From NCBI GenBank assembly GCA_018971685.1, contig JAGXAG010000006.1, positions 62 through 64,061 on the forward strand: a stretch of DNA of 64,000 nt. Direction: 5' to 3'. Every line of letters begins with the position of its first letter. The stretch's first letter is position 1. This DNA is from Patescibacteria group bacterium. GTDB lineage: Bacteria; Patescibacteriota; Minisyncoccia; Phycocordibacterales; PALSA-1337. Position numbers and translations under genes: made by a program. Shown here in pieces: positions 14,317 through 51,365 of this stretch. Below the pieces are notes generated by a model, which was not told where the DNA came from, searched no databases, and worked only from the letters and a program-made list of their open reading frames with translations.

Positions 14317-14799
14317 ATGAAAAAACTACAAAGTTACGCGCGCGGCTTCACCTTGATCGAATTGCTCGTCGTCATCGCCATCATTGGTATCTTGGCGTCC
14401 GTCGTGTTGGTGAGCTTGGGGAGTGCGAGACAGAAGGGTGCGGATGCTAAAATTCAGGAAGAATTGGGTCAAGCTAGATCGGCTGCAGAGATATTTAGTT
14501 CAAATAACGGTAATTCTTATGGTACCGCGCCTACATCCGGAATCTGTACTACTGGAAGTATGTTTACGGATGGTGTTTCAGGTATGCGCCAAGCGTTGTC
14601 TGCTATATCTACAGCTACAGACTGTGGTTCAAACGGTACAGCCTATTCGATAGCTGCTGCCTTAAATACGAGCGGTCAATATTGGTGTATAGACTCAACG
14701 GGTGTATCTAGAAATACCACTGCAGCTGGTTCGTTATATGCAGGCTTAACAGGGGCTTCTGGCGCTCATGCTGCAGCAGGTGCGACAGTATGCAATTAG
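14317..14799 (+). CDS. Type IV pilin (probable major pilin)
   Basis: RGFTLIELLVVIAIIGILA. It has its own TGnTATAAT promoter (about 14235-14243) and its own terminator. Confidence 0.93.
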   Translation: MKKLQSYARGFTLIELLVVIAIIGILASVVLVSLGSARQKGADAKIQEELGQARSAAEIFSSNNGNSYGTAPTSGICTTGSMFTDGVSGMRQALSAISTATDCGSNGTAYSIAAALNTSGQYWCIDSTGVSRNTTAAGSLYAGLTGASGAHAAAGATVCN

Positions 14800-16095: not shown

Positions 16096-16707
16096 ATGGT
16101 TAAGATGAACAGCATAAAATTCAAGGCAAATGATCGCGGCTTCACTCTCATCGAACTCCTGGTGGTTATCGCCATCATAGGCATACTGGCTTCTGTAGTC
16201 CTCATAAGCCTAAGCACCGCCCGATCAAAGGCCATGGATGTCCGGATAAAATCAAACTTGTCGCAAATGAGAAACCAGCTGGAACAAGATTACGCGAACG
16301 GGGCTTATGTGGATCTTTCGGCCGGGCAGAACAACACGGCCAATATAAATCCGACTATGCCAGGTGGCGCCAACCTGCTTGTGCTCGTCAACGATACCGG
16401 CAATCTGAACGGCCACGCGCAATTGACCAACTTGGCTTCCGGCGGCAATGTAGACTTGTTTGCCACCACCAGCGGTTCTACCGTCGGCCCCAATGCCGGC
16501 GATCCGTCATATTTGGATTCCGGCCTGGTTATATTTACATCCGCCGCCTCCGGCAATTCCGTTCAAGATTATGCCGTTTATGCCACCACTACGGCCGGCT
16601 ATGATTGCGTCGATTCTGCCGGGAATAATGTGACGGATGGTACCGCCGTAACTATGCCGATAACTTCCGTCCCTCTGGACACCAACAATAAAGTTGTTTG
16701 CAAGTGA
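16096..16707 (+). CDS. Type IV pilin
   Basis: RGFTLIELLVVIAIIGILA. Confidence 0.92.
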   Translation: MVKMNSIKFKANDRGFTLIELLVVIAIIGILASVVLISLSTARSKAMDVRIKSNLSQMRNQLEQDYANGAYVDLSAGQNNTANINPTMPGGANLLVLVNDTGNLNGHAQLTNLASGGNVDLFATTSGSTVGPNAGDPSYLDSGLVIFTSAASGNSVQDYAVYATTTAGYDCVDSAGNNVTDGTAVTMPITSVPLDTNNKVVCK

Positions 16708-16810: not shown

Positions 16811-17338
16811 ATGAAAAAGCATCAATTCTCCCGGGCGTTTACTCTTATCGAACTTCTGGTTGTCATCGCAATCATAGGCATTTTGACTGCCATAGTTATC
16901 ACCAACCTCGCCACTTCCCGAGCCAAAGCGCGCGATGCCAAAAGGGTTTCCGACTTAGGACAGATCCAGTTAGCCCTGGAATTGTATTTCGACCGGTGCA
17001 AGCAGTATCCGGCCTTTATAGCGGGAACTCCCGGTTCCGGCACGGGATCTGTAACTCTAAACACCAGTTTCAATAATAATTGCCCTTCCGGCGTAAGCCT
17101 GGGAACATATATTTCGCAAATTCCAAAAGATTCTTCCGGTGCCAATTATGACTATTATGTAGATAATATGTCCGGGCCGTCTGATTACATTTTGCACGCC
17201 ACGCTTGAATATCCCAATAGCGCGGTCCAAAACGGCCTGGACTCTTCTAATTTACCATCGTGGGCAAGCGGCATGACCCCTCCACCCACATGCAGTAATG
17301 CAAGCAATTCGACAAATTATTGCCTCGGACCCAAGTGA
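16811..17338 (+). CDS. Type IV pilin (GspG-like)
   Basis: RAFTLIELLVV, ARDAKRVSDL..IQLALELY. Confidence 0.92.
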   Translation: MKKHQFSRAFTLIELLVVIAIIGILTAIVITNLATSRAKARDAKRVSDLGQIQLALELYFDRCKQYPAFIAGTPGSGTGSVTLNTSFNNNCPSGVSLGTYISQIPKDSSGANYDYYVDNMSGPSDYILHATLEYPNSAVQNGLDSSNLPSWASGMTPPPTCSNASNSTNYCLGPK

Positions 17339-20055: not shown

Positions 20056-20540
20056 TCTCCATGAACAAAAAAAGGAAACAATCCGGCTACGCTCTCCTCT
20101 TTGCGGTGTTAACCGCCGTACTTGTCATGGGCGTGGCGGCATTCATCTTGGGCGTGGCTAAAAAGCAGTATGCCATTTCAGCCATTGCCCGCGACTCCAT
20201 GTATTCTTTCTACAACGCGGACAGCGCCATTAGCTGTATAGAGCAAAGTTGGAACCCATCCGCTAGTAATCCGAGTGTTACTTGCGACAACAAAATCATA
20301 TCTCCGACGCAATCGCAATCAACGAGCCCGTTATTTTCAGGCAACCCCACAAGATATCAAGGAGCCATAGATTTTGACACTGCAGGGTGCGCATTATTCA
20401 ATATATGGGTCGGTACCGATCCTGTAACTAACAATCCCAAGACCGTCATTGAAACACGCGGTTACAATGTGTGCGGCGGCAATCCTTTGGCGCCTACCGC
20501 GACCGCTGTTGAACGCGCCATCCGCCTGACACAACAGTGA
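20052..20540 (+). CDS. PilX-like minor pilin
   Basis: SGYALLFAVL lacks E5; SFYNADSA; C-terminal ERAI. Confidence 0.8.
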   Translation: MISMNKKRKQSGYALLFAVLTAVLVMGVAAFILGVAKKQYAISAIARDSMYSFYNADSAISCIEQSWNPSASNPSVTCDNKIISPTQSQSTSPLFSGNPTRYQGAIDFDTAGCALFNIWVGTDPVTNNPKTVIETRGYNVCGGNPLAPTATAVERAIRLTQQ

Positions 20541-20543
20541 CCG

Positions 20544-20570
20544 TTTTACACCGGTCCGACCGGTGTAAAA
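20544..20570. repeat. Perfect 27-bp palindrome directly before ligA
   Basis: TTTTACACCGGTC-C-GACCGGTGTAAAA. Confidence 0.8.
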
Positions 20571-22838
20571 ATGAATGCCATGCCCAAAAAAGCCCCGAAA
20601 GAGGCGGTAGAACGCCTAAATAAGCTCAAAGAGGCGATAGAGAAGCATCGCTACAACTATTATGTGCTAGACCAAACCGAGGTCTCCGACGCGGCATATG
20701 ATTCGCTGGTACATGAATTGGCGGAAATAGAAGCGGAATATCCGGAATTATTCACGCCTGATTCGCCGTCGCAGAGAGTCGGCGGCGAGCCGTTGCCGGG
20801 ATTCAAGAAGGTCAGGCACGAAGTGCCGCAATGGTCTTTCAACGACGCTTTCACGCCCGAGGAGATGCGCGATTTCGACGCGCGCGTCAAGCGATTCTTG
20901 GCGCAGGCGGGCGCCAAGGGAAGCGGCGAAGACGCGGGCGCGCCAAGGCCTTCGTACACCTGCGAGCACAAGATCGACGGGCTAAAGATCGTGCTTACTT
21001 ACGAAAACGGAATTTTGAAACAAGCGGCGACCCGGGGCGACGGCACCGTCGGCGAAGATGTGACGGAAAATGTTAAGACGATCAGGTCGGTGCCGTTGCG
21101 GCTCCGTGAACCGATTTCGATGATCGTCGAGGGCGAAGCCTGGATAGCGAAGAGCACGCTCGAATCCTTAAATAAAACGCGGATTGAAAACAGCTTGGAG
21201 CCGTTCGCGAACCCGCGGAATCTGGCGGCGGGATCGATCCGGCAGTTGGATCCGAAGGTGGCGGCTGAGCGTAGACTGGACTCCTTTATTTACGAGATGG
21301 CGACGCCGGCCTCTCCCTCCTCGCCGCGACGAAGTGTCTCACATCCGGCTTCGTCTCGTTCGACACTTGCCGCCGGCTCGACGGTCGAGGCCGGCTTCCC
21401 GCGGACGCAATGTGAAGAATTGGAATTTTTGCGCCGCATGGGATTCAAGGTCAATAAAAACTTCGAGCATTGCAAAGACATCGATGAAGTAATCGCGTAC
21501 TGGGAAAAATGGCGCGGCAAAATGAAAGATCAGGACTACTGGGCGGACGGGATCGTGGTGAAAGTGGATGAACGGAAATATCAAGAGGCGCTGGGCTATA
21601 CCGGCAAGGCGCCGCGATGGGGCATAGCGTTCAAATATCCCGGCGAAGAAGTCACGACCGTCTTGGAAGACATCGTCTTCCAAGTCGGCCGGATGGGCAC
21701 GATCACGCCGGTGGCGGTATTGAAGCCGGTTTCAGTCGGCGGTTCGACGGTTTCAAGGGCGACTCTGCACAATGAAGATGAAATCAAGCGACTGGATGTG
21801 CGTATCGGCGACACGGTCGTATTGCGCAAAGCCGGCGATGTTATCCCGGACATCGTGTCGGTGGTGAAAGAGCTCCGGGTGGCGTCGAGCAAACCGTTCG
21901 TCTGGCCTTCGCGGGTGGCGGCTTGCGGCGGCGACGGCAAGATCGAGCGCGTGCCGGGCGAAGCGGCTTGGCGGTGCGCCGACCGCAATTCATTCGAGCA
22001 ACAAAAAAGAAAACTTTATTATTTCACTTCGAAACACTGCTTCGACATCGACGGCATGGGGCCGAAGGTGATCGATTTGCTCTTGGAGCACGGCCTTATC
22101 TCTTCGCCGGCGGACATTTTCACCTTGAAGAAAGGCGATTTGGAGAATTTGCCGCGCATGGGAACAAAGTCGGCCGATAATTTGATGCGGGCTATCGAGA
22201 AAGCGCGCACGGTTACTTTGCCGCGATTCATCGCTTCGCTCTCTATTCCGCAAGTCGGCGAAGAGACGGCGTATGATCTTGCGCGACATTTCAGTGCCAC
22301 TACATCCCCGTCCGTTGTGGAGGACCTTCGGGACACGCCGTCGGCGCCTGCTGGCGCCGCGGCTGGCTCTCGGCCGCCTTCGCGACCTCCGAGGCGTCCC
22401 TCAGGTCTCTCCACGACGGACAGGGCGACTATCCTGTTGCGTGAAATGTTTGCAGCAGGTGTCGATGATTTTGAGAAAATCAATGGAGTCGGGCCGAAAG
22501 TTGCGCAGTCAATAGTCAGTTGGTTTGGAAATCAGGACAATCGCCGATTGGTCCACAGATTATTGAAGCTTGTGACGATCGAAATCGAGAAAGAAATAAC
22601 AGGATCGGCAAACTCACTCGCCGGCAAATCGTTCGTCTTTACCGGCACATTGCCGACTCTGCAAAGGGAAGAGGCGCAAAACATGGTGCGCCGAAACGGC
22701 GGCAGTGTTTCGAACTCGGTTTCCAAGAAAACTTCGTTTCTGGTCGCCGGCGCCGACGCCGGTTCGAAATTGGACAAAGCGCGCGAATCGGGCGTCAAGG
22801 TTATTTCCGAAGATGAATTCTTGAAAATGATAGGATAA
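20571..22838 (+). CDS. ligA: NAD-dependent DNA ligase with two in-frame palindromic insertions
   Basis: EHKIDG, TRGDG..GEDVT, FANPRN, DGIVVK, HhH motifs, BRCT (GKSFVFTGTL). Confidence 0.97.
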   Translation: MNAMPKKAPKEAVERLNKLKEAIEKHRYNYYVLDQTEVSDAAYDSLVHELAEIEAEYPELFTPDSPSQRVGGEPLPGFKKVRHEVPQWSFNDAFTPEEMRDFDARVKRFLAQAGAKGSGEDAGAPRPSYTCEHKIDGLKIVLTYENGILKQAATRGDGTVGEDVTENVKTIRSVPLRLREPISMIVEGEAWIAKSTLESLNKTRIENSLEPFANPRNLAAGSIRQLDPKVAAERRLDSFIYEMATPASPSSPRRSVSHPASSRSTLAAGSTVEAGFPRTQCEELEFLRRMGFKVNKNFEHCKDIDEVIAYWEKWRGKMKDQDYWADGIVVKVDERKYQEALGYTGKAPRWGIAFKYPGEEVTTVLEDIVFQVGRMGTITPVAVLKPVSVGGSTVSRATLHNEDEIKRLDVRIGDTVVLRKAGDVIPDIVSVVKELRVASSKPFVWPSRVAACGGDGKIERVPGEAAWRCADRNSFEQQKRKLYYFTSKHCFDIDGMGPKVIDLLLEHGLISSPADIFTLKKGDLENLPRMGTKSADNLMRAIEKARTVTLPRFIASLSIPQVGEETAYDLARHFSATTSPSVVEDLRDTPSAPAGAAAGSRPPSRPPRRPSGLSTTDRATILLREMFAAGVDDFEKINGVGPKVAQSIVSWFGNQDNRRLVHRLLKLVTIEIEKEITGSANSLAGKSFVFTGTLPTLQREEAQNMVRRNGGSVSNSVSKKTSFLVAGADAGSKLDKARESGVKVISEDEFLKMIG
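21305..21395 (+). repeat. Palindromic element family A, copy 1 (in frame in ligA)
   Basis: Ends GCCGGCCTC/GAGGCCGGC; the 81-nt core is 76/81 identical to the 23159-23247 copy. Confidence 0.9.
22306..22425. repeat. Palindromic element family B (120 bp, in frame in ligA)
   Basis: CCCCGTCCGTTGTGGAG pairs with CTCCACGACGGACAGGG; nested GACCT/AGGTC and GGGAC/GTCCC. Confidence 0.85.
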
Positions 22839-22854
22839 GTGGTAGAATCGCATC

Positions 22855-23148
22855 ATGATAACCGAAAAAGAACTTGAACGCCTGGCGATTCTGGCCAGAA
22901 TAAAATTGTCGGAAGGCGACAAAAAGTCGCTGGTCAAGGAATTCGACTCGATTTTGGGCTATATCGACCAATTAAAGAAAGTTGAGGTTTCCCTCGACGC
23001 TTCCGCGCGCGTCGGATCCGTCAAGAATGTTACCAGGCCCGATGTTGTCGAAAATACCAGCCGAGAAGATCGTGAGCGATTGTTGAACGAAGCGCCCGAC
23101 CGCCAAGGCGATTTTATTGCTGTGAAAAAAATCTTGAATAACACTTAG
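22855..23148 (+). CDS. gatC: Asp/Glu-tRNA amidotransferase subunit C
   Basis: LAILARIKL, ILGYIDQL, NVTRPD; adjacent to gatA. Confidence 0.93.
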   Translation: MITEKELERLAILARIKLSEGDKKSLVKEFDSILGYIDQLKKVEVSLDASARVGSVKNVTRPDVVENTSREDRERLLNEAPDRQGDFIAVKKILNNT

Positions 23149-23158
23149 ATTCGCGCCA

Positions 23159-23247
23159 GCCGCCTCGACCGTCGAGCCGGCGACAAGTGTCGAACGAGGC
23201 GAAGCCGAATGTGAGACGCTTCGTCGCGCCGAGGAGGGAGAGGTGGC
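23159..23247 (-). repeat. Palindromic element family A, copy 2 (intergenic gatC-gatA, inverted)
   Basis: Its reverse complement matches the ligA 21310-21390 insert. Confidence 0.9.
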
Positions 23248-23277
23248 GGTCGAATTACCCAAGTTGAATTAATTAAA

Positions 23278-24726
23278 ATGAAAATCGATTTGAAATCACT
23301 CACGATCAAAAAAGCCTCCGATCACTTGAAAAAAGGCGATTTTTCCGCCGTTGAATTGACCCAAGCATACCATGATGAAATCACCAAGAAGAACAAGGAC
23401 ATTAACGCCTACCTGGAAGTTTTCGACGACGCTCTGGATGCCGCCAAGCAGGCCGATGAAAAGATCGCCGACGCCCGGAAAACCCGCAAGGAAATAAGCC
23501 CGCTTGCCGGCATTCCATGCGGCGTGAAAGACAACATCCTCATAAAAGGCAAAATCGCCAGCGCCGCTTCCAAAATCCTGGAAAATTATCATGCCACTTA
23601 TGACGCCACCGTTATAAAAAAATTAGCCGCGAATGGCGCCGTATTTCTCGGCCGCACCAACATGGATGAATTCGCCATGGGCGGCTCGACCGAGAATTCC
23701 GCTTTCGGCGTGACCAAGAACCCGTATGATTTGGGCAGAGTCGCTGGCGGCTCTTCCGGCGGTTCGGCGGCGGCGGTTGCCATGGACGGCGCTTTGTTCG
23801 CCTTGGGTTCCGATACCGGCGGTTCTATCCGACAGCCGGCGAGCTTTTGCGGCGTGGTCGGATTGAAGCCGACTTACGGCGCGGTTTCCAGGTACGGCGT
23901 CATGGCCATGGGATCTTCGCTCGACCAGATCGGCCCGATCGCAAAAACCGCCTCCGACGCCGAGATCGTATTCAATGCAATCAAGGGCAACGATCTGAAA
24001 GACGGCACGATGATCAAGGATAACACTTATACCAAGAAAAGAATCGGCAAAAACAAGCCGGTTATAGGCGTACCGCGGCATTTTCTAGCCGGCGACGGCA
24101 TAGACCATGAAGTGTTAAAGGCGTTCAATGAAGCCGTTGATTTATTCAAGGCCAAAGGATATGAGATGAAAGAGATAAAACTGCCGAATATTTCCTATGC
24201 GCTCATGGTCTACTACATCATCATGCCGGCGGAAGTGTCGTCGAATTTGGCCAGGTTCGATGGCGTGAAATACGGCTTGCGCAAAAACGGCAAAGACGGC
24301 ATTGACGATTATTTTGAAACGAGGCGCGTCGGTTTCGGCCGGGAAGTGATACGCCGCATTCTGCTCGGGACTTATGTGCTGTCGTCCGGTTATTACGACG
24401 CCTACTACAATCGCGCCAACGCGGTGCGTCGGATGATTACCGGCGATTTCCTGAAAGCGTTCGAATCGGTTGACGCGATCGCCATGCCGACCGCACCCTC
24501 TCCGGCTTTCAAGATCGGCGAGAAGGCCAGCGACCCGGTTGCCATGTATCTGGAAGATATTTTTACGGTTACCGCCAATCTGACAGGCTTGCCGGCCATT
24601 TCGATCCCGTGCGGCTTCGCGGAAAACAGCGGGAAAAAATTACCGGTGGGCTTGCAGCTCACCGCGCGCCACGGCGACGAGTCGACGCTGTTTGAAACCG
24701 GCAAAGACTTTTTGGGCGAGTCGTGA
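23278..24726 (+). CDS. gatA: Asp/Glu-tRNA amidotransferase subunit A
   Basis: KDNI, NMDEFAMGGSTENS, GGSSGGS, GSDTGGSIRQPA, LARFDG. Confidence 0.97.
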   Translation: MKIDLKSLTIKKASDHLKKGDFSAVELTQAYHDEITKKNKDINAYLEVFDDALDAAKQADEKIADARKTRKEISPLAGIPCGVKDNILIKGKIASAASKILENYHATYDATVIKKLAANGAVFLGRTNMDEFAMGGSTENSAFGVTKNPYDLGRVAGGSSGGSAAAVAMDGALFALGSDTGGSIRQPASFCGVVGLKPTYGAVSRYGVMAMGSSLDQIGPIAKTASDAEIVFNAIKGNDLKDGTMIKDNTYTKKRIGKNKPVIGVPRHFLAGDGIDHEVLKAFNEAVDLFKAKGYEMKEIKLPNISYALMVYYIIMPAEVSSNLARFDGVKYGLRKNGKDGIDDYFETRRVGFGREVIRRILLGTYVLSSGYYDAYYNRANAVRRMITGDFLKAFESVDAIAMPTAPSPAFKIGEKASDPVAMYLEDIFTVTANLTGLPAISIPCGFAENSGKKLPVGLQLTARHGDESTLFETGKDFLGES

Positions 24727-24765
24727 TCGCGCGCCTGCCGCGCGCGAACGATTTTTTGCTATAAT

Positions 24766-25359
24766 ATGGTCATGCAACCTGCACTCGAGATCCCATACAT
24801 CGATTTCGGTTCATTCTTCAAGTCGATCGGCTCAGCCACCGTTGATTTCTATCCGCATTTAATCCAAGGCATAAAGGATGTAGCCGGCATACTGATAGGC
24901 ATTTCCATACCGTTGTCGCTCTTTTTCCTTATCGTCATCATCTACAGTACCGAGCAATTGAAGCGCATACGCAAGAAAGAGGCCGAAGCTTTCGACCTCA
25001 AGGTCGTGCCCGCATATGAAAAGACCGAAGGCGGCGATCCCGAAACCGCCAAACGCTGGCGGGACATTGTCGAGCACATTTCTTCGAACAACTCCAACGA
25101 TTGGCGTCAAGCTCTGATCGATGCCGACATTATTCTCGATCAGACGCTTACCAAAATGGGCTATCAAGGGCAAACCGTCGGCGACAAACTTCAGCGCGTG
25201 GCCAAAGGGGACTTCAATACGATCGACGACGCCTGGAAGGCGCACAAAGTCAGGAATCAGATCGCGCACGAGGGCTCCGGTTTCGAGCTCAATCACCACG
25301 AAGCCAAAAAAGCGTTCGACGCGTACCGCCGAGTGTTCGAGGAGTTTTATTACATTTAA
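24766..25359 (+). CDS. Conserved hypothetical membrane-anchored protein
   Basis: One TM helix, then W..A.IDAD..LD and AW.AHKVRN.IAH motifs. Confidence 0.85.
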   Translation: MVMQPALEIPYIDFGSFFKSIGSATVDFYPHLIQGIKDVAGILIGISIPLSLFFLIVIIYSTEQLKRIRKKEAEAFDLKVVPAYEKTEGGDPETAKRWRDIVEHISSNNSNDWRQALIDADIILDQTLTKMGYQGQTVGDKLQRVAKGDFNTIDDAWKAHKVRNQIAHEGSGFELNHHEAKKAFDAYRRVFEEFYYI

Positions 25360-25386
25360 CGAGGACTAACCTCGAAGTTCTGCTTG

Positions 25387-25458
25387 TTGCGGGGGCCGGA
25401 ATCGAACCGGCAATCTTCAGGTTATGAGCCTGACGAGCTACCGTTACTCTACCCCGCG
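25387..25458 (-). tRNA. tRNA-fMet (CAT), initiator-like
   Basis: Cloverleaf with C1:A72 mismatch; anticodon arm TCAGG-CT-CAT-AA-CCTGA. Confidence 0.93.
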
Positions 25459-25549
25459 ATAATTACCAATAGTATTGCACACATGTCTAATCGGCGCAAT
25501 ATGTGATGTGAACATGACTCGAACCATGGTATACTACTAATTATACAAT

Positions 25550-26260
25550 ATGTCGAAGTTCGAATTAAAGCCTGAAGTCATCAAGCTGAGAAAGTCTGGC
25601 AAAAGTATTTTTGATATATCTAAAGCAATGAGAATATCCAAAAGTACCGCATCCATATGGTGCAGGAATATCGTAATGACCGTTTCTCAGAGAAATAATC
25701 TTATCGATAGAATGATAAAAAGCGGTCATGCCGGTCGTATCAAGGGGGCGGAAGCCAATAGAAATAAGAAATATATAGTGCAAGAGGAGGCAAAGGTGTG
25801 GGCGAATAAAACAGTATCGCAGATATCTTTGCGCGACAGATTGATAGCTGGACTCGCTCTGTATTGGGCAGAAGGTAGCAAAGCGGATTCCACTTTTGGA
25901 TTCGTCTTTGTAAACTCTGATCCCGTTATGGTCAGATTCATGTTAGATTGGCTTGTCGAGATCATGGATGTGCCAAAAGAGCAGATTACCGCCGCGGTGT
26001 CCATAAATATGATGCACAAGTCAAGAGATAAAGAGGTTTTGAATTTTTGGTCGCATCTGCTAGACTTGCCTTTAAGCTCCTTTTCCAAGACATTTTTTGC
26101 TTCCTCAGTGCGACGAAAGATATATGCAAATCACTCCAGACATTTCGGTGTGCTAAGATTGAGCGTCAGGAAAAGCAGTCGGTTGAAATATAAGGTAATT
26201 GAGATGATAAATGTGTTAAAAGCCGGTGTAGCTCAGGTGGTTAGAGCGAACGCTTCATAA
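25550..26260 (+). CDS. Hypothetical protein with N-terminal HTH and LAGLIDADG-like core; overlaps a tRNA
   Basis: LRKSGKSI..I...ISKST.S.W, AGLALYWAEGSK, FVNSDP, FWS. Confidence 0.75.
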   Translation: MSKFELKPEVIKLRKSGKSIFDISKAMRISKSTASIWCRNIVMTVSQRNNLIDRMIKSGHAGRIKGAEANRNKKYIVQEEAKVWANKTVSQISLRDRLIAGLALYWAEGSKADSTFGFVFVNSDPVMVRFMLDWLVEIMDVPKEQITAAVSINMMHKSRDKEVLNFWSHLLDLPLSSFSKTFFASSVRRKIYANHSRHFGVLRLSVRKSSRLKYKVIEMINVLKAGVAQVVRANAS

Positions 26261-26295
26261 GCGTTAGGTCCCTGGTTCAAGTCCAGGCACCGGCA
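26222..26295 (+). tRNA. tRNA-Met or Ile2 (CAT)
   Basis: Cloverleaf; AACGC-TT-CAT-AA-GCGTT. Confidence 0.92.
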
Positions 26296-26418
26296 CAAGG
26301 TCCTGTGCTTATGGGCTTCGCATACAACAGTCACATATAATGCTGGTACGAAACAGGCCCGCCCTTTTCTTGTTTTTTATAGAATTTTTGATAAACTGAT
26401 TTTGTCCGATCTTTTTAT

Positions 26419-26493
26419 GCGCCCGTGGTGTAGCCTGGCTAACACGTTCCCCTGTCACGGGAAAGATCGTGGGTTCAAATCCCATCGGGCGCG
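26419..26493 (+). tRNA. tRNA-Asp (GTC)
   Basis: TTCCC-CT-GTC-AC-GGGAA. Confidence 0.95.
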
Positions 26494-26514
26494 CAGTTCG
26501 TTTAAAATTCAGTT

Positions 26515-26590
26515 GCCAATGTAGCTCAGTTGGTAGAGCAGCCCCATGGTAAGGGGCAGGTCGCCAGTTCAATTCTGGCCATTGGCTCCA
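26515..26590 (+). tRNA. tRNA-Thr (GGT)
   Basis: GCCCC-AT-GGT-AA-GGGGC; CCA encoded. Confidence 0.95.
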
Positions 26591-26614
26591 GAATATGCGC
26601 GAAGTCGCAGACGC

Positions 26615-26690
26615 GCCAAAGTAGCTCAGTTGGTAGAGCACCGCTTTCGTAAAGCGGGGGTCGTGGGTTCAAGCCCCACCTTTGGCTCCA
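26615..26690 (+). tRNA. tRNA-Thr (CGT)
   Basis: CCGCT-TT-CGT-AA-AGCGG; CCA encoded. Confidence 0.95.
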
Positions 26691-26700
26691 AGGCAAATTT

Positions 26701-27666
26701 ATGGACAAAGAAAAAACACAACAGAAGATCGCCGAACTCGAGAACGCCATGAATGCGCCGGATTTTTGGGCGGACAAGGCGAAGGCGCAGGAGGCCATAC
26801 GGGAGTTGAAGAAATTGAAAGAGGAACTCGAAGGCGCGGGGAAATATGACAGGGGGGACGCCATATTGTCGATCCTTTCCGGCGCCGGCGGCGACGATGC
26901 CGAAGATTTCTCCGCCATGCTCGCACGCATGTACCGCAAGTATTGCGAGTCAAACGGTTGGAGTTGGAATATTGTTCACACCAATGAAAATGACCATGGC
27001 GGTTACAGGAACATCACTGTTGAAATAAGCGGTGGTCCGATCGTGGTCAGACCGGCCCAAGGCTCGGTCGGTAAGGATTCAAATCACGAAAATTTGAATG
27101 ACAATACAGCCGTGAAAACCGGCCCATACGGAGTTTTGAAGAACGAATCCGGAGTACATCGGCTGGTTCGGATTTCGCCGTTTAACGCCAATGAAAAAAG
27201 GCACACTTCATTCTCGCTGGTGGAAATATTGCCGAAATTCGAGAAAACTTCCGAGGGCGACATCGTGATACCGGAAAGCGATATCGAAGTGTCGATCGCC
27301 AAGTCCGGCGGTCCCGGCGGACAGAATGTCAACAAGCGCGAAACCGCCGTGCGCCTTTTGCACAAGCCGACCGGCATTTCCATACATGTTACTTCCGAAC
27401 GGTCGCAGGCCCAGAATAAAGAAAAGGCAATGGCGATCTTGCGCGCCAAGCTGTGGAAAAAGGCAGAAGATGACAGAGTTGCCAAGGAGCGCGGCATGCA
27501 GATCTCCTCGACCACTTTGATCGAATGGGGCAATCAGATACGGTCGTATGTTTTACATCCTTATAAGATGGTGAAAGACCACAGAACCGATCATGAGACT
27601 TCGCAGGTGGATAAAGTCTTGGATGGGGATATTCAAGGATTTATTGAGGCTGAATCACAGTTGTAA
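26701..27666 (+). CDS. prfB: Peptide chain release factor 2 (short N-domain, no frameshift)
   Basis: [35 protein letters not shown]. Confidence 0.92.
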
Positions 27667-27779
27667 AATCCCTTGCTCTTTTGCTTCGAATACTCTCGTT
27701 TCGTAAACCCATCATCCTGCTCCGCTAAGGCTTGCTCCGCGAGGTATTCTCAGCAACGAGCAAGGGATTTTCAATTGTG
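27656..27779. repeat. Long intergenic hairpin element between prfB and ftsE
   Basis: Perfect 14-bp IR AAAATCCCTTGCTC (27665-27678) / GAGCAAGGGATTTT (27758-27771), extended by imperfect inner and outer pairing. Confidence 0.8.
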
Positions 27780-27781
27780 CT

Positions 27782-28474
27782 ATGATTAAACCGATGATTT
27801 ATTACGACAAAGTCACCAAAGTTTATCCGGACAAATCAATTGCACTAGAGGAAGTCACTTTTGGGGTCGAGCCCAAGGAATTTGTGACGATAGTCGGACA
27901 TTCGGGCGCGGGCAAAACTACTCTGATGAAACTTTTGATCGCCGAAGAGAGGCCGAGCGGCGGCGCCGTCTTCTTCGAATCGAGCAATATACACCGTTTG
28001 GGCAAGCGCGACATGAGCAAGATACGCCGCCGGATAGGCACCATATTCCAGGATTACCGGCTGATACCGACTAGGACCGTCTATGAGAATATCTCTTTTG
28101 CCATGGAAGCGGCCGGGCGGGGAGACGGTGAAATCGCCGCCGATGTGCCGCATGTGCTCGAACTGGTCAATCTCGGGCACAAGATATGGAATTTTCCACG
28201 CGAATTGTCGGGCGGCGAACGGCAGAGGGTCGCTATCGCGCGCGCCATTGTCAATCAGCCGGATATCGTGATCGCCGATGAGCCGACCGGCAACCTCGAT
28301 CCCGAAAACACCTTTGAAATAGTCAGGATTTTGCGTAAAATTAACGAATTGGGCACGACCGTATTGCTGACGACGCACAATAAAGGAGTGGTGGATACGG
28401 TCGGCGGCAGGATTATTACGATGGAGAGAGGAAGGGTTGTGAAAGACGATAAAAATGGGAGATATGTTTTGTAG
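27782..28474 (+). CDS. ftsE: Cell division ATPase
   Basis: GHSGAGKTT, FQDYRL, LSGGERQR, ADEPTGNLD; upstream of ftsX. Confidence 0.93.
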   Translation: MIKPMIYYDKVTKVYPDKSIALEEVTFGVEPKEFVTIVGHSGAGKTTLMKLLIAEERPSGGAVFFESSNIHRLGKRDMSKIRRRIGTIFQDYRLIPTRTVYENISFAMEAAGRGDGEIAADVPHVLELVNLGHKIWNFPRELSGGERQRVAIARAIVNQPDIVIADEPTGNLDPENTFEIVRILRKINELGTTVLLTTHNKGVVDTVGGRIITMERGRVVKDDKNGRYVL

Positions 28475-28477
28475 TTT

Positions 28478-28504
28478 GTCATTCCCGCGAAAGCGGGAAT
28501 CCAG
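28478..28504 (+). repeat. dRS3/RPE-like short palindrome
   Basis: GTCATTCCCGCGAAAGCGGGAATCCAG (ATTCCC-N8-GGGAAT). Confidence 0.8.
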
Positions 28505-28525
28505 AATAAAAAACATTGCGATGTT

Positions 28526-29494
28526 ATGATCAAACCTATGATTTTCACCACATTCAAAAGAATAACCAAGACGGGCTTCGTCAACTTCTGGCGCAACGGA
28601 TTCCTGTCATTCGCGGCGATCGTGGTCATCACGCTGTCGCTGTGCGCCTTCGGCGGACTTTTGTTCGCCAGCGCGTTCGGACGATCGCTCATCGCCGATG
28701 TCAAAGACAAAGTGGATATCAATGTGTATTTTACGCTTTCGACGCCGGAGTCGAACATTCTGGCTTTGCAAAGCGATTTGAACGGCTTGCCGGAAGTCGC
28801 CAGCACCACCTATATATCGAGCGATCAGGCGCTTGCGTCATTCAAGGACAAGTGGCAGGACAACGCGCTCATCATGCAAGGGCTGGATGAAATCGGCAGC
28901 AATCCATTCCCGGCGTCGATCAATATCAAAGCCAAAGATCCGGGGCAGTACGGCGCGATCGCGGATTATCTGACGAGCAAAAATCCGACCGATTCTTCGG
29001 GCACGCCGATCATCGAAAAAGTCAATTACGCGCAAAACAAGCTTATCATTGATCGTTTGAGCAAAATAATTCCGGCGGTAGAGCAAGCGGGGGCGGTTTT
29101 GGCGATCATTCTGGTTCTGGTGGCGATGATCGTGGTCTTCAACACGATCCGGCTGATCGTCTATACCAGCAAAGACGAGATTGCAGTCATGAAGCTGGTC
29201 GGCGCGAGCAATGTGTTCGTGCGCGGGCCGCTGGTTGTCTCGGGCATCATGTATGGCGTCATTTCCGGGATTATCACGCTCGTCCTCATGGCGGCTTTCG
29301 CCTATTGGAGCGACGCCCTCATCTTGCGTTTGGCGGGCGTCGACGTGGCTTCCAATTTCGAGCTGGTCGTGAACCTTCTATCCAACTATTTTGTGCGCAA
29401 TTTCACGCAGATATTCCTGATCGTCATGGGCGCCGGAATTATTCTCGGCGGAGTGTCGAGTTATATTGCGGCCAGGAGGTATTTGAGAGTATAA
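28526..29494 (+). CDS. ftsX: Cell division permease
   Basis: Four TM helices, NPFPAS, NTIRL...EIAVMKLVGA. Confidence 0.93.
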   Translation: MIKPMIFTTFKRITKTGFVNFWRNGFLSFAAIVVITLSLCAFGGLLFASAFGRSLIADVKDKVDINVYFTLSTPESNILALQSDLNGLPEVASTTYISSDQALASFKDKWQDNALIMQGLDEIGSNPFPASINIKAKDPGQYGAIADYLTSKNPTDSSGTPIIEKVNYAQNKLIIDRLSKIIPAVEQAGAVLAIILVLVAMIVVFNTIRLIVYTSKDEIAVMKLVGASNVFVRGPLVVSGIMYGVISGIITLVLMAAFAYWSDALILRLAGVDVASNFELVVNLLSNYFVRNFTQIFLIVMGAGIILGGVSSYIAARRYLRV

Positions 29495-29522
29495 AAACCG
29501 CCGGACGATCGGTCGTCCGGCG
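29493..29522 (-). terminator. Terminator between convergent genes
   Basis: CGCCGGACGA-TCGG-TCGTCCGGCG with an adjacent A tract. Confidence 0.6.
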
Positions 29523-29546
29523 CGACAGGTGACGCTTGTCATCAGA

Positions 29547-30164
29547 TCATCGCGGCAATTTCATGCCGCCCATTACCGCGTACATGAACGGTTGGGCGTC
29601 GTATCTGTGTATGGGCACCCAATCGAAGTAGATTGTTTTGACGCCGGCTTGCACTTCTTTGTATCCTTCATGTCGATAAAGAAATTTCGGCACCACACAG
29701 ACAAAGAAGTATCTTTGGCGGAAAGTCCTTAGGTGCGGATATGACCGGGTACCTCCGGTGATCACCGGATCACAGCCGATCGCGGCCATCGAGTAACCAC
29801 CTTTCCTGAAGTCGTCATTGAGTTCTTCGGCCAGTGCCCGGTGCGCGGCTTCTTCCGGTTTTTCTCCCGGCATTAATTTTTCGCTGACACTGGTGTCACG
29901 GCGTATTTTTCTTACCCGGCCGTCATTAAAGACTTGCCGGGTTTCGCGGAGGAAGTGCAAAGTCTGATCAGACAACGGATAGTAAACATAAATCGCGGCC
30001 ACCTTGATGCATCTGACCAAAAAGCCGTTTACGAACCGGAATACGGCTTCACCGGCGTTCACTTCCTTGAGCAGGTGCTCGACCTTTTTGGCTTCGCCGC
30101 GTCCCCAAGAATCGATAGGGATGCGGTGTTCCACTAGCAGTTTTTCCAATTGTTCAATGTTCAT
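29547..30164 (-). CDS. NUDIX-like hypothetical protein
   Basis: SEKLMPGEKPEEAAHRALAEEL is a variant Nudix box. Confidence 0.75.
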   Translation of the reverse strand: MNIEQLEKLLVEHRIPIDSWGRGEAKKVEHLLKEVNAGEAVFRFVNGFLVRCIKVAAIYVYYPLSDQTLHFLRETRQVFNDGRVRKIRRDTSVSEKLMPGEKPEEAAHRALAEELNDDFRKGGYSMAAIGCDPVITGGTRSYPHLRTFRQRYFFVCVVPKFLYRHEGYKEVQAGVKTIYFDWVPIHRYDAQPFMYAVMGGMKLPR

Positions 30165-30240
30165 AATTTATCTTACCCTGACACAATTCACGGAAAATAG
30201 CAATATTGGAATTTTCCTCGGGGTTTACTACAATGCAGGC

Positions 30241-32037
30241 ATGGCAATACGCGCCCTAAAGAATCACCACAAGTATATCTTCGTGATCGGCGGAGTGATG
30301 TCGGGCGTGGGCAAAGGCATAGCGACATCATCGATCGGCACGCTGCTTACCGCGAAAGGGTATCGCGTCAATCTGGTCAAAGTCGATCCATACTTGAATG
30401 TTGACGCCGGTACCATGAATCCCACCGAGCACGGCGAGGTTTTCGTATTGAATTCCGGATTGGAGACCGACCAGGATATGGGCAATTACGAAAGATTCCT
30501 CGGCAGGGATTTGACGGCGGACGATTATATTACGAGCGGCATGGTCTATAAGCATGTCATAGAGAAAGAGCGCGCTTTGGAGTTCGGCGGCAAATGCGTG
30601 GAGGCGATCCCGCATATCCGCGATGAAATAGTGCACCGGTTCGAACATTCCGCCAAAGTCAATAAGTCTGACATTTCGATCATCGAGATCGGCGGCACGA
30701 TCGGCGATTACCAGAATGTCATGTTTATCGAAGCCGCGAGGGTGCTTAAGATGCGCCATCCGAACGATGTTTTGTTCATTATGGTTTCGTATCTGCCGAC
30801 GCCGGGCAAACTGGGTGAAATGAAATCGCGGCCGACCCAGAACGCCGCGCGCCAGCTGGCGGGTTACGGCATCAATACCGATTTTATCATCGCGCGCGCG
30901 GAAAGCCCACTCGACCATAAGAGGAAGGAGAAAATCGCGGTCTCTTGCAATATTCCGTGCGAGCGGGTGATATCGGCGCCGGACATAGAGAGCATTTACG
31001 ATGTGCCGGCGAATTTCGAGAAAGATAAGCTCGGCATCTTGCTTCTGGACGCGCTCGGCCTGAAATCAAAAAAGCCGGACAAATCATTCGAGGCTTGGAA
31101 AAGAATGGCGCGGGGGATCAAGAACCATTCGAACCGTGAGGTGAATATTGCGATCGTGGGAAAATATTTCAATACCGGAGATTTTATTTTGTCGGATGCA
31201 TACCTGTCTGTGCTGGAGGCGATCAAATTCTCGGCCTATGAGGCCGGAGTGAAAGCGGTTATCCATACGGTGAATTCGAGGGACTTCGAGGGAAATGATG
31301 TCGGGAGGCCTCTCCCTCCTCGGCGCGACGAAGTGTCTCACATTCGATCCGCCCATCCGACACCCGTTGCCGCCTCGACGGGAGAGGCGCAGGCAGCCGG
31401 TTTCGAGGTACTCGATAAGTATGACGGCATTATAGTGCCGGGCGGATTCGGCGAGTCGGGAATTGAAGGCAAATTGAATGTGATCAAGTACGCACGCGAG
31501 AACAAAATACCGTATTTTGGACTGTGTTACGGCATGCAGCTCATGACTATAGAATATGCCAGGAATGTTTTGGGCCTGAATGAGGCGCATACGGCGGAAA
31601 TAAACCCACGAAGCCCCCATCTTATCATAGATATCATGCCGGACCAGAAGAAAAAACTGGCGGAAGGCAATTACGGCGGATCGATGCGTCTGGGATTGTA
31701 TCCGGCAAAATTGGCGAAAGATACGATCGCGCAAGAAGCGTATTCATATTTCCAAGGCAAGCGGTTGCCGAAGCCGACGGCAATGATCAAAGAGCGGCAC
31801 AGGCATCGTTATGAAGTCAATCCCAAGTACATCGAAAGGCTGGAGAAAGGCGGCTTAGTATTCTCGGGCTGTTCACCTGACGGCCGTTTGATGGAGATCG
31901 CTGAATTACCGCGCGAAGTCCACCCGTTTTTCCTGGGCACGCAATTTCATCCCGAATTTTTGGCGCGGCCTTTGCAACCGCATCCGCTATTCACCGCGTT
32001 TGTAAAAGCGGCAAAGGTCAGGCTCGGCGGCCGATGA
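30241..32037 (+). CDS. pyrG: CTP synthase with an in-frame palindromic insertion
   Basis: GGVMSGVGKG, DPYLNVDAGTM, VPGGFG, GLCYGMQ, ERHRHRYE, QFHPEF. Confidence 0.97.
   Translation: MAIRALKNHHKYIFVIGGVMSGVGKGIATSSIGTLLTAKGYRVNLVKVDPYLNVDAGTMNPTEHGEVFVLNSGLETDQDMGNYERFLGRDLTADDYITSGMVYKHVIEKERALEFGGKCVEAIPHIRDEIVHRFEHSAKVNKSDISIIEIGGTIGDYQNVMFIEAARVLKMRHPNDVLFIMVSYLPTPGKLGEMKSRPTQNAARQLAGYGINTDFIIARAESPLDHKRKEKIAVSCNIPCERVISAPDIESIYDVPANFEKDKLGILLLDALGLKSKKPDKSFEAWKRMARGIKNHSNREVNIAIVGKYFNTGDFILSDAYLSVLEAIKFSAYEAGVKAVIHTVNSRDFEGNDVGRPLPPRRDEVSHIRSAHPTPVAASTGEAQAAGFEVLDKYDGIIVPGGFGESGIEGKLNVIKYARENKIPYFGLCYGMQLMTIEYARNVLGLNEAHTAEINPRSPHLIIDIMPDQKKKLAEGNYGGSMRLGLYPAKLAKDTIAQEAYSYFQGKRLPKPTAMIKERHRHRYEVNPKYIERLEKGGLVFSGCSPDGRLMEIAELPREVHPFFLGTQFHPEFLARPLQPHPLFTAFVKAAKVRLGGR
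31308..31388 (+). repeat. Palindromic element family A, copy 3 (81 bp, in frame in pyrG)
   Basis: Ends GCCTCTCCC/GGGAGAGGC; the first 38 nt are 37/38 identical to the gatC-gatA copy. Confidence 0.88.
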
Positions 32038-32067
32038 CCGCGCGCAACGAAAAAACCGCCTAATTTT

Positions 32068-32613
32068 TCACTTTTTTCCAGTCAACGGAAAGGTCTTCAA
32101 TACTTTCCACGCGCGGTCTTCGCGGTTTTCTTTTACGAATACGGTAAGATTGTCGAATGAAATTTCAAATTTTGGCGCGGGCGCGGATTGCAGGTGTTTC
32201 CATACAGCTTCGAATTGCTGCGGTTTCAAAAATCGCGCGACGGACATATGGATATGCGGATCAATCTCTTGCGGTGTCAAATTCAGGCCGATATTGCGCA
32301 ATTTGGACTGAGCCTTCTTTATAAAGGATTTGAGTTCGGCCGGCGGCTCTGGCGCGTCGACGAATATTGTGCGCGAATGGAAGCTGTTCCAACCGGAGAG
32401 AGCGAGCGGTATCGCCGGCGCCTCGGCGGCCGATGAAAGAATCTCATCAATGGCGTCGGCGTTCGGCTGGTCAAAAGGAGATTTTACGGTTATGTGCGGC
32501 GGCACGATGGCCGACACATCTTCCACGCCAAATCTGGCCGAAAGATCGGCACAAGTGGCCTTATAATATTCCGCCGCTTCGCCCCTGATGATGTTTCCGA
32601 CGAAAAAACGCAT
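32068..32613 (-). CDS. 2H phosphoesterase (2'-5' RNA ligase family)
   Basis: PHITV and PHIHMSV (two H-x-T/S-like motifs). Confidence 0.8.
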   Translation of the reverse strand: MRFFVGNIIRGEAAEYYKATCADLSARFGVEDVSAIVPPHITVKSPFDQPNADAIDEILSSAAEAPAIPLALSGWNSFHSRTIFVDAPEPPAELKSFIKKAQSKLRNIGLNLTPQEIDPHIHMSVARFLKPQQFEAVWKHLQSAPAPKFEISFDNLTVFVKENREDRAWKVLKTFPLTGKK

Positions 32614-36174: not shown

Positions 36175-36180
36175 TGTTTA

Positions 36181-36254
36181 GGGGCAAGGTTCTATTCCTT
36201 GCCCCACTCAATTGAGTCTACGACTGAAGTCGCGGATTCATAGAGTTCTTTGAG
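36181..36254 (+). repeat. Array spacer element, copy 3
   Basis: GGGGCAAGG/CCTTGCCCC, then ACTCAAT-TGAGTCTACGAC..GTCGCGGATTCA-TAGAGTTCTTTGA. Confidence 0.85.
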
Positions 36255-36578: not shown

Positions 36579-36585
36579 GTGTACA

Positions 36586-36667
36586 GGAGCAAGGTCCAAT
36601 CCCTTGCTCCACTCAATTGGATTTACGATCATGACGATCGCGAATCCTGAGAGTTCAGTTCTTTAAA
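36586..36667 (+). repeat. Array spacer element, copy 4
   Basis: GGAGCAAGG/CCTTGCTCC, then ACTCAATT-GGATTTACGATC..GATCGCGAATCC-TGAGAGT, then AGTTCTTTAAA. Confidence 0.85.
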
Positions 36668-49343: not shown

Positions 49344-51365
49344 ATGAACCCCGCCCAAATACGCAATTTCTCTATTATCGCGCACATAGACCACGGCAAG
49401 TCCACCTTGGCCGACCGGATGTTGGAGTTGACCGGCACCATAGAGAAGCGCAAAATGCAGGCGCAGGTGTTGGATTCCATGGAATTGGAGCGTGAGCGCG
49501 GCATAACCATCAAACTCCAGCCGGTCAGGATGAAATGGTCATTGAAAGAGACCATCGCCGGCGCGCCCGCGGGCGAGTATGTGTTGAATCTAATAGACAC
49601 GCCCGGACACATCGATTTTTCCTATGAAGTATCCAGGTCGCTCAAAGCCGTCGAAGGATCCATCTTGCTCGTCGACGCCACCCAAGGCGTCCAGGCTCAG
49701 ACCCTAACCACCCTCAATATGGCGCGCGAGGCCGGCCTGGTCATCATTCCCGTCGTTTCCAAGATCGATTCGCCGCTGGCGCAGATCGAAGAGACCGTCA
49801 AAGAGATCAGTCAGCTTTTGGGTTGCCATGAATCCGAAGTCATCAAAGTTTCCGGCAAAACCGGCGAGGGCGTCGAACATTTACTCGACAAAATTATTAG
49901 TAAAATCCCGCCGCCATCCTGTGCCAGCCCCGCCCGAAACAAAGGAAGTTTCGCGAGCTCCGCGACTCTGCCGCGAAGCAATCCGTCGTTGCGTTTCCCG
50001 GACGGCAAGGGCGTGCATGTCCGAGAGCCATTGCCGGCCGCGGAAACGCCGACGGTTGCGAGCGGCATTCGCGGAGCTCGCGAAACTTCCTTTGTTTCGG
50101 GCGGGGCGACTGAATCTTTTTCGGCCGCCGAATCATTCAAGGAACCATTCCGGTCCCTCGTTTTTGACTTCCAATACTCCAACCACACCGGCATGATCGT
50201 CTATGTCCGCGTGTTCGACGGACAAGTCCGCAAACATGACAAATTGCAGTTCAAAATAGCCGGCAAAACATTCGAGGCCATCGAAGCAGGAATATTCGCT
50301 CCCCAGGAAACCCCCGTCGAATACATTGGCGCCGGCGAGATCGGCTATATCGTGACCGGCATCAAGGAGCCTGGCATTGCTTCCGTCGGCGATACCGTAG
50401 CCTCGATCAGAGACAATCAGCCGCCGCTATCCGGTTACCAAAGTCCAAAACCCGTTGTCTGGGCGTCGATCTATCCCGAAAGCCAAGACAATTTGCCCCT
50501 TTTGCGCCAAGCCCTCGCGCGCTTGCGCCTGTCCGATGCCGCTTTTACTTATGAAGAGGAGGCGTCCGGCACGCTCGGCAAAGGGTACCGATCAGGGTTC
50601 CTCGGCATGTTGCACCTGGAAATAGTCACCGAGCGCTTACGCCGCGAATACAACCTTGAACTGGTCGTTACCATGCCAACCATCATTTATTCCGTCAGAT
50701 TGAAAAACGACAAAGAGACCAAAATTTATTCGCCGGCGCTGTTCCCCGACGATCACGATATCATGTCTGTGAGCGAACCGGTCGTAACCATGAAGATAAT
50801 CACTCCACCGCCATATATCGGCGGATTGATGAAGTCAATTTATGACCACGAGGGCGAGATCGTCTCTACCGATAACTTCGGCGATAGCCGTACGATATTG
50901 GCCTTGAATATGCCGCTACGCGAGCTGATGCGCAACTTCTTCGACGAAGTCAAGAGCGTTTCTTCCGGTTACGCGTCGATTTCTTACGACATAACCGGCG
51001 CGAGGCAAGCCGATGTCACCAGGCTGGATATTTTGGTTGCCGACGAACCCGTGCCGGCTTTTGCCAGGGTTGTATCCAGGAGAAGAGTGCAAGAAGAGGC
51101 GGAATCTGCCGTCGAAAGGTTGCACAAACTGCTGCCACGCGAATTGTTCACTTTCAAAATCCAAGCCAAGGCCCACGGTCGTATCCTGGCTTCGCGCACC
51201 CTTTCCGGCATGAAAAAGGACGCCGCCGGTACGCTCTCCGGCGGCGATATCACCCGCAAGATGAAATTGCGCGAAAAACAAAAAGAAGGCCGCAAACGGC
51301 TGAAGGCGCGCGGCAAAGTGGCGATAGCGCAGGATGTTTTCGTGAAGATGATGCGCGCCGATTAG
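49344..51365 (+). CDS. lepA: Elongation factor 4 with an in-frame palindromic insertion
   Basis: IRNFSIIAHIDHGKSTLADR, DTPGH.DF, GFLGMLHLEI, GGDITRKMKL. Confidence 0.97.
   Translation: MNPAQIRNFSIIAHIDHGKSTLADRMLELTGTIEKRKMQAQVLDSMELERERGITIKLQPVRMKWSLKETIAGAPAGEYVLNLIDTPGHIDFSYEVSRSLKAVEGSILLVDATQGVQAQTLTTLNMAREAGLVIIPVVSKIDSPLAQIEETVKEISQLLGCHESEVIKVSGKTGEGVEHLLDKIISKIPPPSCASPARNKGSFASSATLPRSNPSLRFPDGKGVHVREPLPAAETPTVASGIRGARETSFVSGGATESFSAAESFKEPFRSLVFDFQYSNHTGMIVYVRVFDGQVRKHDKLQFKIAGKTFEAIEAGIFAPQETPVEYIGAGEIGYIVTGIKEPGIASVGDTVASIRDNQPPLSGYQSPKPVVWASIYPESQDNLPLLRQALARLRLSDAAFTYEEEASGTLGKGYRSGFLGMLHLEIVTERLRREYNLELVVTMPTIIYSVRLKNDKETKIYSPALFPDDHDIMSVSEPVVTMKIITPPPYIGGLMKSIYDHEGEIVSTDNFGDSRTILALNMPLRELMRNFFDEVKSVSSGYASISYDITGARQADVTRLDILVADEPVPAFARVVSRRRVQEEAESAVERLHKLLPRELFTFKIQAKAHGRILASRTLSGMKKDAAGTLSGGDITRKMKLREKQKEGRKRLKARGKVAIAQDVFVKMMRAD
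49927..50107. repeat. Palindromic element family C (181 bp, perfect 39-bp terminal IR, in frame in lepA)
   Basis: 49927-49965 is the exact reverse complement of 50069-50107. Confidence 0.95.

Follow-up and report, generated by a model that had tools for sequence, protein, structure and literature searches.

Rickettsia palindromic elements, or RPEs, are dispersed repeats of about 100-150 bp that, in the cited accounts, are found between genes as well as within protein-coding sequences (Ogata et al. 2000, 2002; PMC10969869, PMC1779305). An element resembling them in its behaviour is present in a 64,000-nucleotide stretch of DNA from a Patescibacteria group bacterium (positions 62-64,061 of contig JAGXAG010000006.1, assembly GCA_018971685.1), which is referred to here as the window. 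The element is an imperfect palindrome of ~85-115 nt (~100 nt), which is inserted in frame in the genes ligA and pyrG and is found, inverted, in the spacer between gatC and gatA. The spread of the family to which these three copies belong was probably that of non-autonomous selfish DNA, and translation of the copies inside genes likely yields disordered peptides in surface loops of the host proteins, as in the case of RPEs.

The likeness to RPEs, as far as the cited descriptions go, extends to several traits. Both are short palindromic repeats, located between genes and in frame in unrelated housekeeping genes of a small, reduced genome, and both form several families with lineage-specific proliferation, fold-compatible inserts and no known transposase. 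The open reading frame (ORF) of the host is left intact by the in-frame insertion, which is the case for 8 of 8 in-gene copies here. The differences concern the organism, which is a Saccharibacteria-like member of the candidate phyla radiation (CPR) and not of the Rickettsiales, and the length of the element, which lies at or just below that of RPEs. The re-use of the same loops by different families, the apparent homogenisation of copies genome by genome and the occurrence of opposite orientations at one site are features found here and absent from the portions of the RPE descriptions drawn upon. Likened in this way, by behaviour and description, the family supports the view that RPE-like coding palindromes exist in a new phylum, where they appear to match the mode of working of RPEs. 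No paper on repeats of this kind in CPR, Patescibacteria or Saccharibacteria was among the top-ranked matches of a literature search.

Another related system is that of the REPINs, which are described as extragenic and as flanking a single-copy, family-specific gene for a RAYT (a REP-associated tyrosine transposase of the Y1/HUH type) (PMC3337134). Judging from that account, REPINs and the present element are both non-autonomous hairpin repeats of ~90 nt, with several families per genome and a stem that is conserved while other parts vary; a single-copy Y1-type gene is also found in this genome, and one strand folds better than the other. However, 8 of the 11 copies known here lie inside genes and none flanks the Y1 gene, the product of which falls under the cut-off of the RAYT model. 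The coding palindromes in the mitochondrial genes of Nematomorpha (PMC6649704) are, in the part of the work used here, also long inverted repeats in frame in genes with both arms translated, but they belong to organelle genomes and are perfect repeats of up to 284 bp, whereas the family described here is dispersed and also intergenic. [quoted passage not shown] Their defining marks are inverted repeats at the ends, duplications of the target site and an insertion sequence (IS) to which they are related. In the present family, the outer arms pair but vary by copy, no duplication is readable between filled and empty sites that are too diverged, and BLAST of the whole genome gives no similarity to the region of its one IS3 transposase.

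The element family and its reading frames

The genome, labelled G000, is a metagenome-type assembly of 750,657 bp in 14 contigs; other labels beginning with G, L and C denote relatives, loci and contigs. Genes were called as stop-to-stop ORFs and by Pfam matches. Iterated nhmmer searches yielded 11 copies in G000, and the covariance model R1, which was built from them, recovers the identical 11 (E <= 5.6e-12) in addition to one doubtful match (E 0.047). Eight of the copies lie wholly within ORFs of 376-813 aa, in frame and with Pfam domains on either side. Their hosts are LigA, PyrG, a class-V aminotransferase (Aminotran_5), FtsK, PyrD (dihydroorotate dehydrogenase, DHO_dh), MnmA, a GT4 glycosyltransferase and TopA (topoisomerase I). 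The three intergenic copies are located between gatC and gatA, between groES and groEL, and 3' of the gene of the CCA-adding enzyme. The frame is broken by 0 of the 11 copies and all eight in-gene copies are free of stops, four of them being oriented as the host gene and four in the opposite direction.

The copies in the window and the genes around them are as follows.

20571..22838, plus strand: ligA (NAD-dependent DNA ligase, 755 aa; Pfam), host of the first copy
21298..21401, plus strand: element copy in ligA, in the orientation of the gene (R1 E 2.3e-21; LigA aa ~245-275)
22855..23148, plus strand: gatC (Pfam GatC)
23152..23255, minus strand: intergenic copy of the element between gatC and gatA, in reverse orientation to that in ligA (R1 E 2.7e-22)
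23278..24726, plus strand: gatA (Pfam Amidase, E 9e-145)
30241..32037, plus strand: pyrG (CTP synthase; Pfam CTP_synth_N and GATase, N-terminal orthologue alignment)
31296..31398, plus strand: element copy in pyrG, in the orientation of the gene (R1 E 1.2e-16)

In BLASTN searches of the whole of G000, the ligA copy aligns with the gatC-gatA copy at 93.9% identity over 82 nt (E 8e-31) and with the pyrG copy at 79.8% over 84 nt (E 4.5e-15), and the latter two align with each other at 84.3% over 83 nt (E 2.6e-18); to judge from these alignments, the similarity among the three is far above chance. A repeat search returned the ligA and gatC-gatA copies as inverted arms (21301-21391 and 23162-23252, 91 nt, 90% complementary) and the ligA and pyrG copies as direct repeats (21308-21347 and 31307-31346, 40 nt, 95%). 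The insert in LigA cuts the Pfam DNA_ligase_aden match into two stretches, and the OB, HhH and BRCT domains are encoded further on without a change of frame. The ORF of pyrG (677 aa) is open from 30004, that is, for 79 codons (30004-30240) before the ATG at 30241, where the orthologues start, and thus it probably overstates the protein, which would count ~598 aa from this ATG.

The translation of the ligA copy reads ...TPASPSSPRRSVSHPASSRSTLAAGSTVEAG..., and that of the pyrG copy follows a second frame in its 5' half (RPLPPRRDEVSHI...) and the common frame at its 3' end (...VAASTGEA), a 2-nt length difference bringing the reading back to the frame used in ftsK. Copies in the orientation of their host read ...SPSSARRSVSH...STLVAAST..., those in the opposite one ...TVEPATSV...ETLRR.EEGE..., and SPSSPRRSVSHPASSR is a peptide stretch within one of the inserts. 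As we read the consensus, stops are absent from five of the six frames. Frame use is non-random as far as the sequences tell. All 11 same-orientation copies in Pfam-identified hosts (four in G000, five in G034, one in G014 and one in G016) use a single frame in the 3' half (...TLVAxSTVEA-like), and the third frame of the 5' half, which is hydrophobic and contains cysteine, is used by 0 of the 11; these copies are partly dependent, the FtsK copies of G000 and G034 occupying one site. The length change that restores the frame in pyrG and the uniform 3' frame may be regarded as signs of selection at the level of translation. Based on the pattern of frames and stops, the in-gene copies are likely translated as extra peptide, since segments that are removed or skipped would leave about two thirds of the in-gene copies out of frame, and this is the case for 0 of 8.

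An earlier note on this DNA, prepared from the letters alone, had described the hairpin element in ligA, in pyrG and, inverted, between gatC and gatA. All three copies were found where it had placed them and can be aligned with one another, the peptides it had quoted agree with the translation, and the search of the whole genome that it had proposed reveals a larger family than first noted, with eight coding and three intergenic copies. Its view that the DNA element, and not the peptide, is the conserved unit fits with the two orientations, the use of more than one frame and the presence of copies between genes.

Structurally, the element is a real, imperfect hairpin according to the alignment of the 11 copies, in which 89.3% of cells pair, compared with 82.4 +/- 1.1% in shuffled alignments (0 of 500 reach the observed value) and 29-62% when the partners are slid as a control. 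Pairs changed on both sides amount to 8 of 22 (3.0 +/- 1.3 in shuffles, 1 of 500), and the outermost stem varies between copies yet pairs within each of them. The z-scores of the RNA folds are -1.85 for the ligA copy, -3.78 and -0.68 for the two strands of the gatC-gatA copy, and -2.65 for the pyrG copy. One strand folds on average ~9-11 kcal/mol better than the other in 10 of the 11 G000 copies and in 31 of 31 folded copies of relatives, whatever the direction of the host gene. As a sign of a single-stranded intermediate, this asymmetry was set aside and is taken as a hint only: it is shared by descent and is only partly explained by the modelled pairs.

The spacer copy at 23152-23255 has a 5' outer arm resembling that of the aminotransferase copy and a 3' outer arm resembling that of the ftsK copy, while the sister copies at C14:18601-18704 and C3:25887-25990 are each perfectly self-complementary. 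The impression is that one arm has been remade from its partner, or else that copies undergo recombination. One spacer copy in G000 forms the tip of a ~20-bp stem made of local sequence, a suggestive though not decisive hint at insertion into an older hairpin.

Empty sites, predicted structures and distribution

LigA is present in 40 of the 41 genomes searched. At the R1 site of this protein, 25 of 30 aligned sequences have fewer than 15 extra residues, many of them with a loop of 4-6 residues, and the same is true for 25 of 31 aligned pieces at the R1 site of PyrG. The closest element-bearing relative is G034, with a protein identity of ~63-90% depending on the gene, and its LigA has no insert at this position; in TopA, the insert is lacking in all 5 relatives examined. 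These empty sites, together with the patchy distribution of the family, are the reason why an origin by insertion is put forward. Moreover, every residue that is invariant among the aligned orthologues is kept in LigA and PyrG of G000. This includes K134, D136 and G137 of LigA, which we take to be the adenylation motif, as well as C429, H570 and E572 of PyrG, presumably the glutamine amidotransferase triad.

In AlphaFold2 models made from the orthologue alignments, in which the mean predicted local distance difference test score (pLDDT) is 80 for LigA and 82 for PyrG, the inserts are the segments of lowest confidence in otherwise confident models. The LigA insert (residues 250-274, pLDDT ~30 and thus <50) lies between a strand at 237-248 and a helix at 280-289. 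The PyrG insert (residues 355-385, numbered from the ATG at 30241, pLDDT 25-32) is placed between the strand 338-345 with the helix 346-349 on one side and the helix 388-393 on the other. Both are thus predicted to be disordered surface loops compatible with the fold of the host.

The distribution of the family is patchy within the genus, R1 having matches in three of 36 other genomes (16, 16 and 2 matches), and no match was obtained in the 24 genomes from other families of the order. In relatives, 12 of the 34 matches are in frame in Pfam-identified hosts, counted where the host frame runs through; these hosts are UvrB, PNPase, RsmH, a PfkB kinase, PheT, FtsK, PyrD, GT4, LepA (twice), a methyltransferase and SecA. 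Two copies, the one in the gatC-gatA spacer (L010) and the one in FtsK, are located at identical positions in G034 and G000. When ~185,000 species genomes were scanned for the exact core of the element, 10 loci were found, all of them in one metagenome-assembled genome (MAG) of an uncultured Candidatus Saccharibacteria, which shares the ligA-gatC-element-gatA synteny with G000 and whose GatC and GatA are 80-82% identical. The exact core is also contained in four metagenome contigs, in one of which (L166) it again lies in the gatC-gatA spacer, and a vector search gave 0 viral contigs with it.

The earlier note had interpreted the element as an RPE-like selfish repeat that adds peptide to essential enzymes in a CPR lineage. 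This interpretation gains support from the 8 of 11 copies in frame in housekeeping genes, from the empty sites of orthologues, from the patchy occurrence and from the predicted loops, which correspond to the surface loops it had expected, since both inserts are modelled as loops of very low confidence between well-predicted elements. Most LigA and PyrG orthologues are without the inserts, and several carry different hairpin sequences at the same sites, so that the segments are not a general property of these proteins. The assignment to CPR is supported indirectly by the syntenic Candidatus Saccharibacteria MAG.

Competing explanations

If the family has spread as selfish DNA, its copies would have arisen by insertion, possibly through a single-stranded hairpin intermediate. 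Those observed today would be the survivors of selection, namely copies that keep the frame, contain no stop, encode a hydrophilic peptide and lie in one of the few permissive loops. Afterwards, the copies within a genome may have been homogenised or replaced, and homogenisation would explain why copies at orthologous sites resemble their genome-mates.

Several points weigh against this account. To begin with, no enzyme is linked to the R1 family. G000 has a single Y1 gene (IS200/RAYT-like; C11:87274-87495, corresponding to L142:1312-2106, minus strand), which encodes a protein of 264 aa with 27 bits for PF01797 (cut-off 23) and 23.6 bits for the NCBIfam model REP_Tyr_transpos (cut-off 80). 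This gene is 14 kb away from the nearest R1 copy (C11:73010-73122), its two ends carry a different short hairpin family (...TGGTGQTG... / ...PVRPV...), and Y1 genes, which were found in 32 of 61 relatives but not in G034, occur independently of the element. In addition, the copies in G000 are 74-94% alike, and therefore present-day mobility can at most be inferred. No target-site duplication or termini can be read when the filled ligA and topA sites of G000 are compared with the empty DNA of G034, because the two are too diverged. The hairpin z-scores of the family are modest (-0.7 to -3.8), the translation of the inserts is inferred from sequence, and the re-use of sites by different families could reflect recombinational replacement instead of fresh transposition.

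The Y1 gene was considered as the mobiliser of R1 and rejected, being a weak match that adjoins no copy and whose presence does not track the element. The hairpin family at its ends is also found at C11:97383-97440 and in a GT4 gene (C4:35715-35762). The one IS3 transposase of the genome (PF00665) was rejected as well, as the element has no BLAST match in its region at E <= 10, and there is no match to PF07282 or PF01609 in G000.

Recombinational replacement is the main rival. It assumes that the loop sites are old and inherited, and that the main route by which the present sequence spreads is gene conversion or recombination among hairpins already in place, or homing beside them, and not insertion at naive sites; we consider this quite unlikely. 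In its favour, copies at orthologous sites of different genomes (87.9% for gat, 84.6% for ftsK) are less alike than copies within a genome (93-95%), loop variants are genome-specific, and the element at the pyrD site has opposite orientations in G000 and G034. Insertions of >=15 aa are confined to four sites in the aligned LigA sequences and three in those of PyrG; a fold with z <= -4.5 is obtained for 7 of the 17 LigA inserts and 4 of the 13 PyrG inserts of this size. At the ligA site of R1, strong hairpins of other sequence are found in G021 and G019 (z -6.4 and -10.2), and at the pyrG site in G016, G002 and G021 (z -7.6, -6.6 and -7.0). G021 has a family of its own (TGYR.QGT...TLNP.P), which occupies sites in LigA, the aminotransferase and MnmA (L040, L117, L123) that are R1 sites in G000. 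The mixed outer arms of the gat copy, which match two different sister copies, point in the same direction, as does the arrangement at two sites of G034, pyrD (L018:1370-1625) and GT4 (L102:1380-1640), where an R1 copy is in both cases followed by a second, different hairpin. This pairing suggests a composite element of ~200 nt. Nested insertion into older hairpins was rejected for these composites, the two hairpins being located side by side.

Against replacement, G034 has no insert at the ligA site and none of the five relatives has one at the topA site, and therefore at least some copies entered positions that are vacant in the closest relatives. The loops concerned are minimal in many orthologues, and a small number of permissive loops combined with selection would also account for the re-use of sites. 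The use of such hot spots by several hairpins and the apparent homogenisation by genome are additions to what the earlier note had found.

Another explanation is that the repeat is maintained for the benefit of the host, either as a hairpin that stabilises or attenuates operon mRNA (gatC-gatA, groES-groEL) or as a linker peptide. It could draw on the two intergenic copies inside operon spacers, on the recurrence of the gatC-gatA copy in three assemblies, on the better folding of one strand and on the biased use of frames. However, most members of the genus do not have the family, the hosts are functionally unrelated, both orientations are read, and the inserts are predicted to be disordered; the strand asymmetry, as mentioned, is shared by descent and only partly explained by the modelled pairs. 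A benefit to the host is thus very improbable.

Hop-type elements in coding genes occur elsewhere, and a structured hairpin within an mRNA might also be removed or skipped in expression, by intron-like excision or ribosomal bypass, resulting in proteins without the insert. This is very improbable indeed, given that 0 of 8 in-gene copies in G000 break the frame or hold a stop, that the host frame runs through 12 copies in relatives and that the length of the pyrG copy has changed in a compensating way; an Rfam search of positions 20500-32100 of the window placed no family, ribozyme or intron on the copies at E <= 1. Finally, an assembly artefact, in which misjoins induced by the repeat would have put the element into genes, has a negligible probability despite the metagenome-type assembly in 14 contigs and the contig of one relative that ends at the pyrG site, since all in-gene copies keep the frame with host domains on either side and the copies in FtsK and in the gatC-gatA spacer are found again, identically placed, in independent assemblies.

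Further hairpin families and wider meaning

R1 is not the only family of this kind in the genome. A second insert is found in ligA itself.

22307..22423, plus strand: another in-frame hairpin insert in ligA, not related to R1 (aa ~577-620, ...GAAAGSRPPSRPPRRPS...; its family is shared with IF-2 and SMC)

The 153-nt stretch examined here folds at -89.3 kcal/mol (z -6.4), its peptide resembles that of the IF-2 insert, and residues 581-612 of the LigA model have a pLDDT <50. In the LigA alignment, this site is occupied by fewer than 15 residues in 20 of the 30 sequences, and other hairpins are present in G021 and G003.

A genome-wide scan for inverted repeats detected at least three further in-frame families, hosted by PolA, a Pif1-like helicase, LepA, SecA, a TraG/VirD4-like protein, SMC, IF-2, a second aminotransferase and UvrD. 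In the window, lepA (ORF 49344-51362) contains an in-frame inverted repeat of 181 nt (49927-50107, aa 194-254), with perfect arms of 39 nt and a centre of 103 nt. Its family has four copies, the others being located in PolA (C11:29922-30094), in the Pif1-like helicase (C11:138325-138495) and between genes (C3:8224-8393). Instead of this repeat, the LepA of G014 holds two R1 copies. The in-frame repeats in the TraG/VirD4-like protein, SecA, SMC, IF-2, the class-V aminotransferase and UvrD lie at C4:34167-34331, C4:62369-62539, C12:36606-36745, C12:71732-71861, C7:6940-7066 and C11:57892-57941, respectively. The insert of this second class-V aminotransferase corresponds in relative position to the R1 copy of the paralogous enzyme.

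Other features of the window include a cluster of five tRNA genes (25387-26687; Rfam tRNA, 64-71 bits) and three direct repeats of 92 nt (14347-14438, 16141-16232 and 16838-16929), which encode FTLIELLVVIAIIGIL-like segments that we take to be type IV pilin-like N-termini. Two direct repeats of 49 nt (36175-36223 and 36580-36628, 80% alike) each have a GGGGCAAGG...CCTTGCCCC hairpin.

A more far-reaching picture, which is tentative and in our opinion doubtful, is that a Saccharibacteria genus hosts a turnover of several hairpin families in the same few loops of essential proteins, where newcomers would home to or replace residents, flip, form composites and become homogenised, possibly by means of single-stranded hairpins and Y1-type enzymes. 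If this were true, much of the length variation of core enzymes in ultra-small genomes would have been written by selfish palindromes.

RPEs have been regarded as peculiar to Rickettsia and related bacteria, and an unrelated, ultra-small CPR genome behaves in the same manner with no less intensity. Reduced genomes in which intergenic space is scarce thus seem to drive selfish hairpins into the few loops of essential proteins that tolerate them. Selfish hairpins also provide a concrete source for the lineage-specific insertions that are frequent in CPR proteins. Inserts of this kind lengthen proteins, interrupt homology matches as well as contigs, and could pass for functional domains. In addition to their importance for annotation, the loops that are used repeatedly show, as a map drawn by nature, where LigA, PyrG, TopA and other enzymes tolerate insertions.

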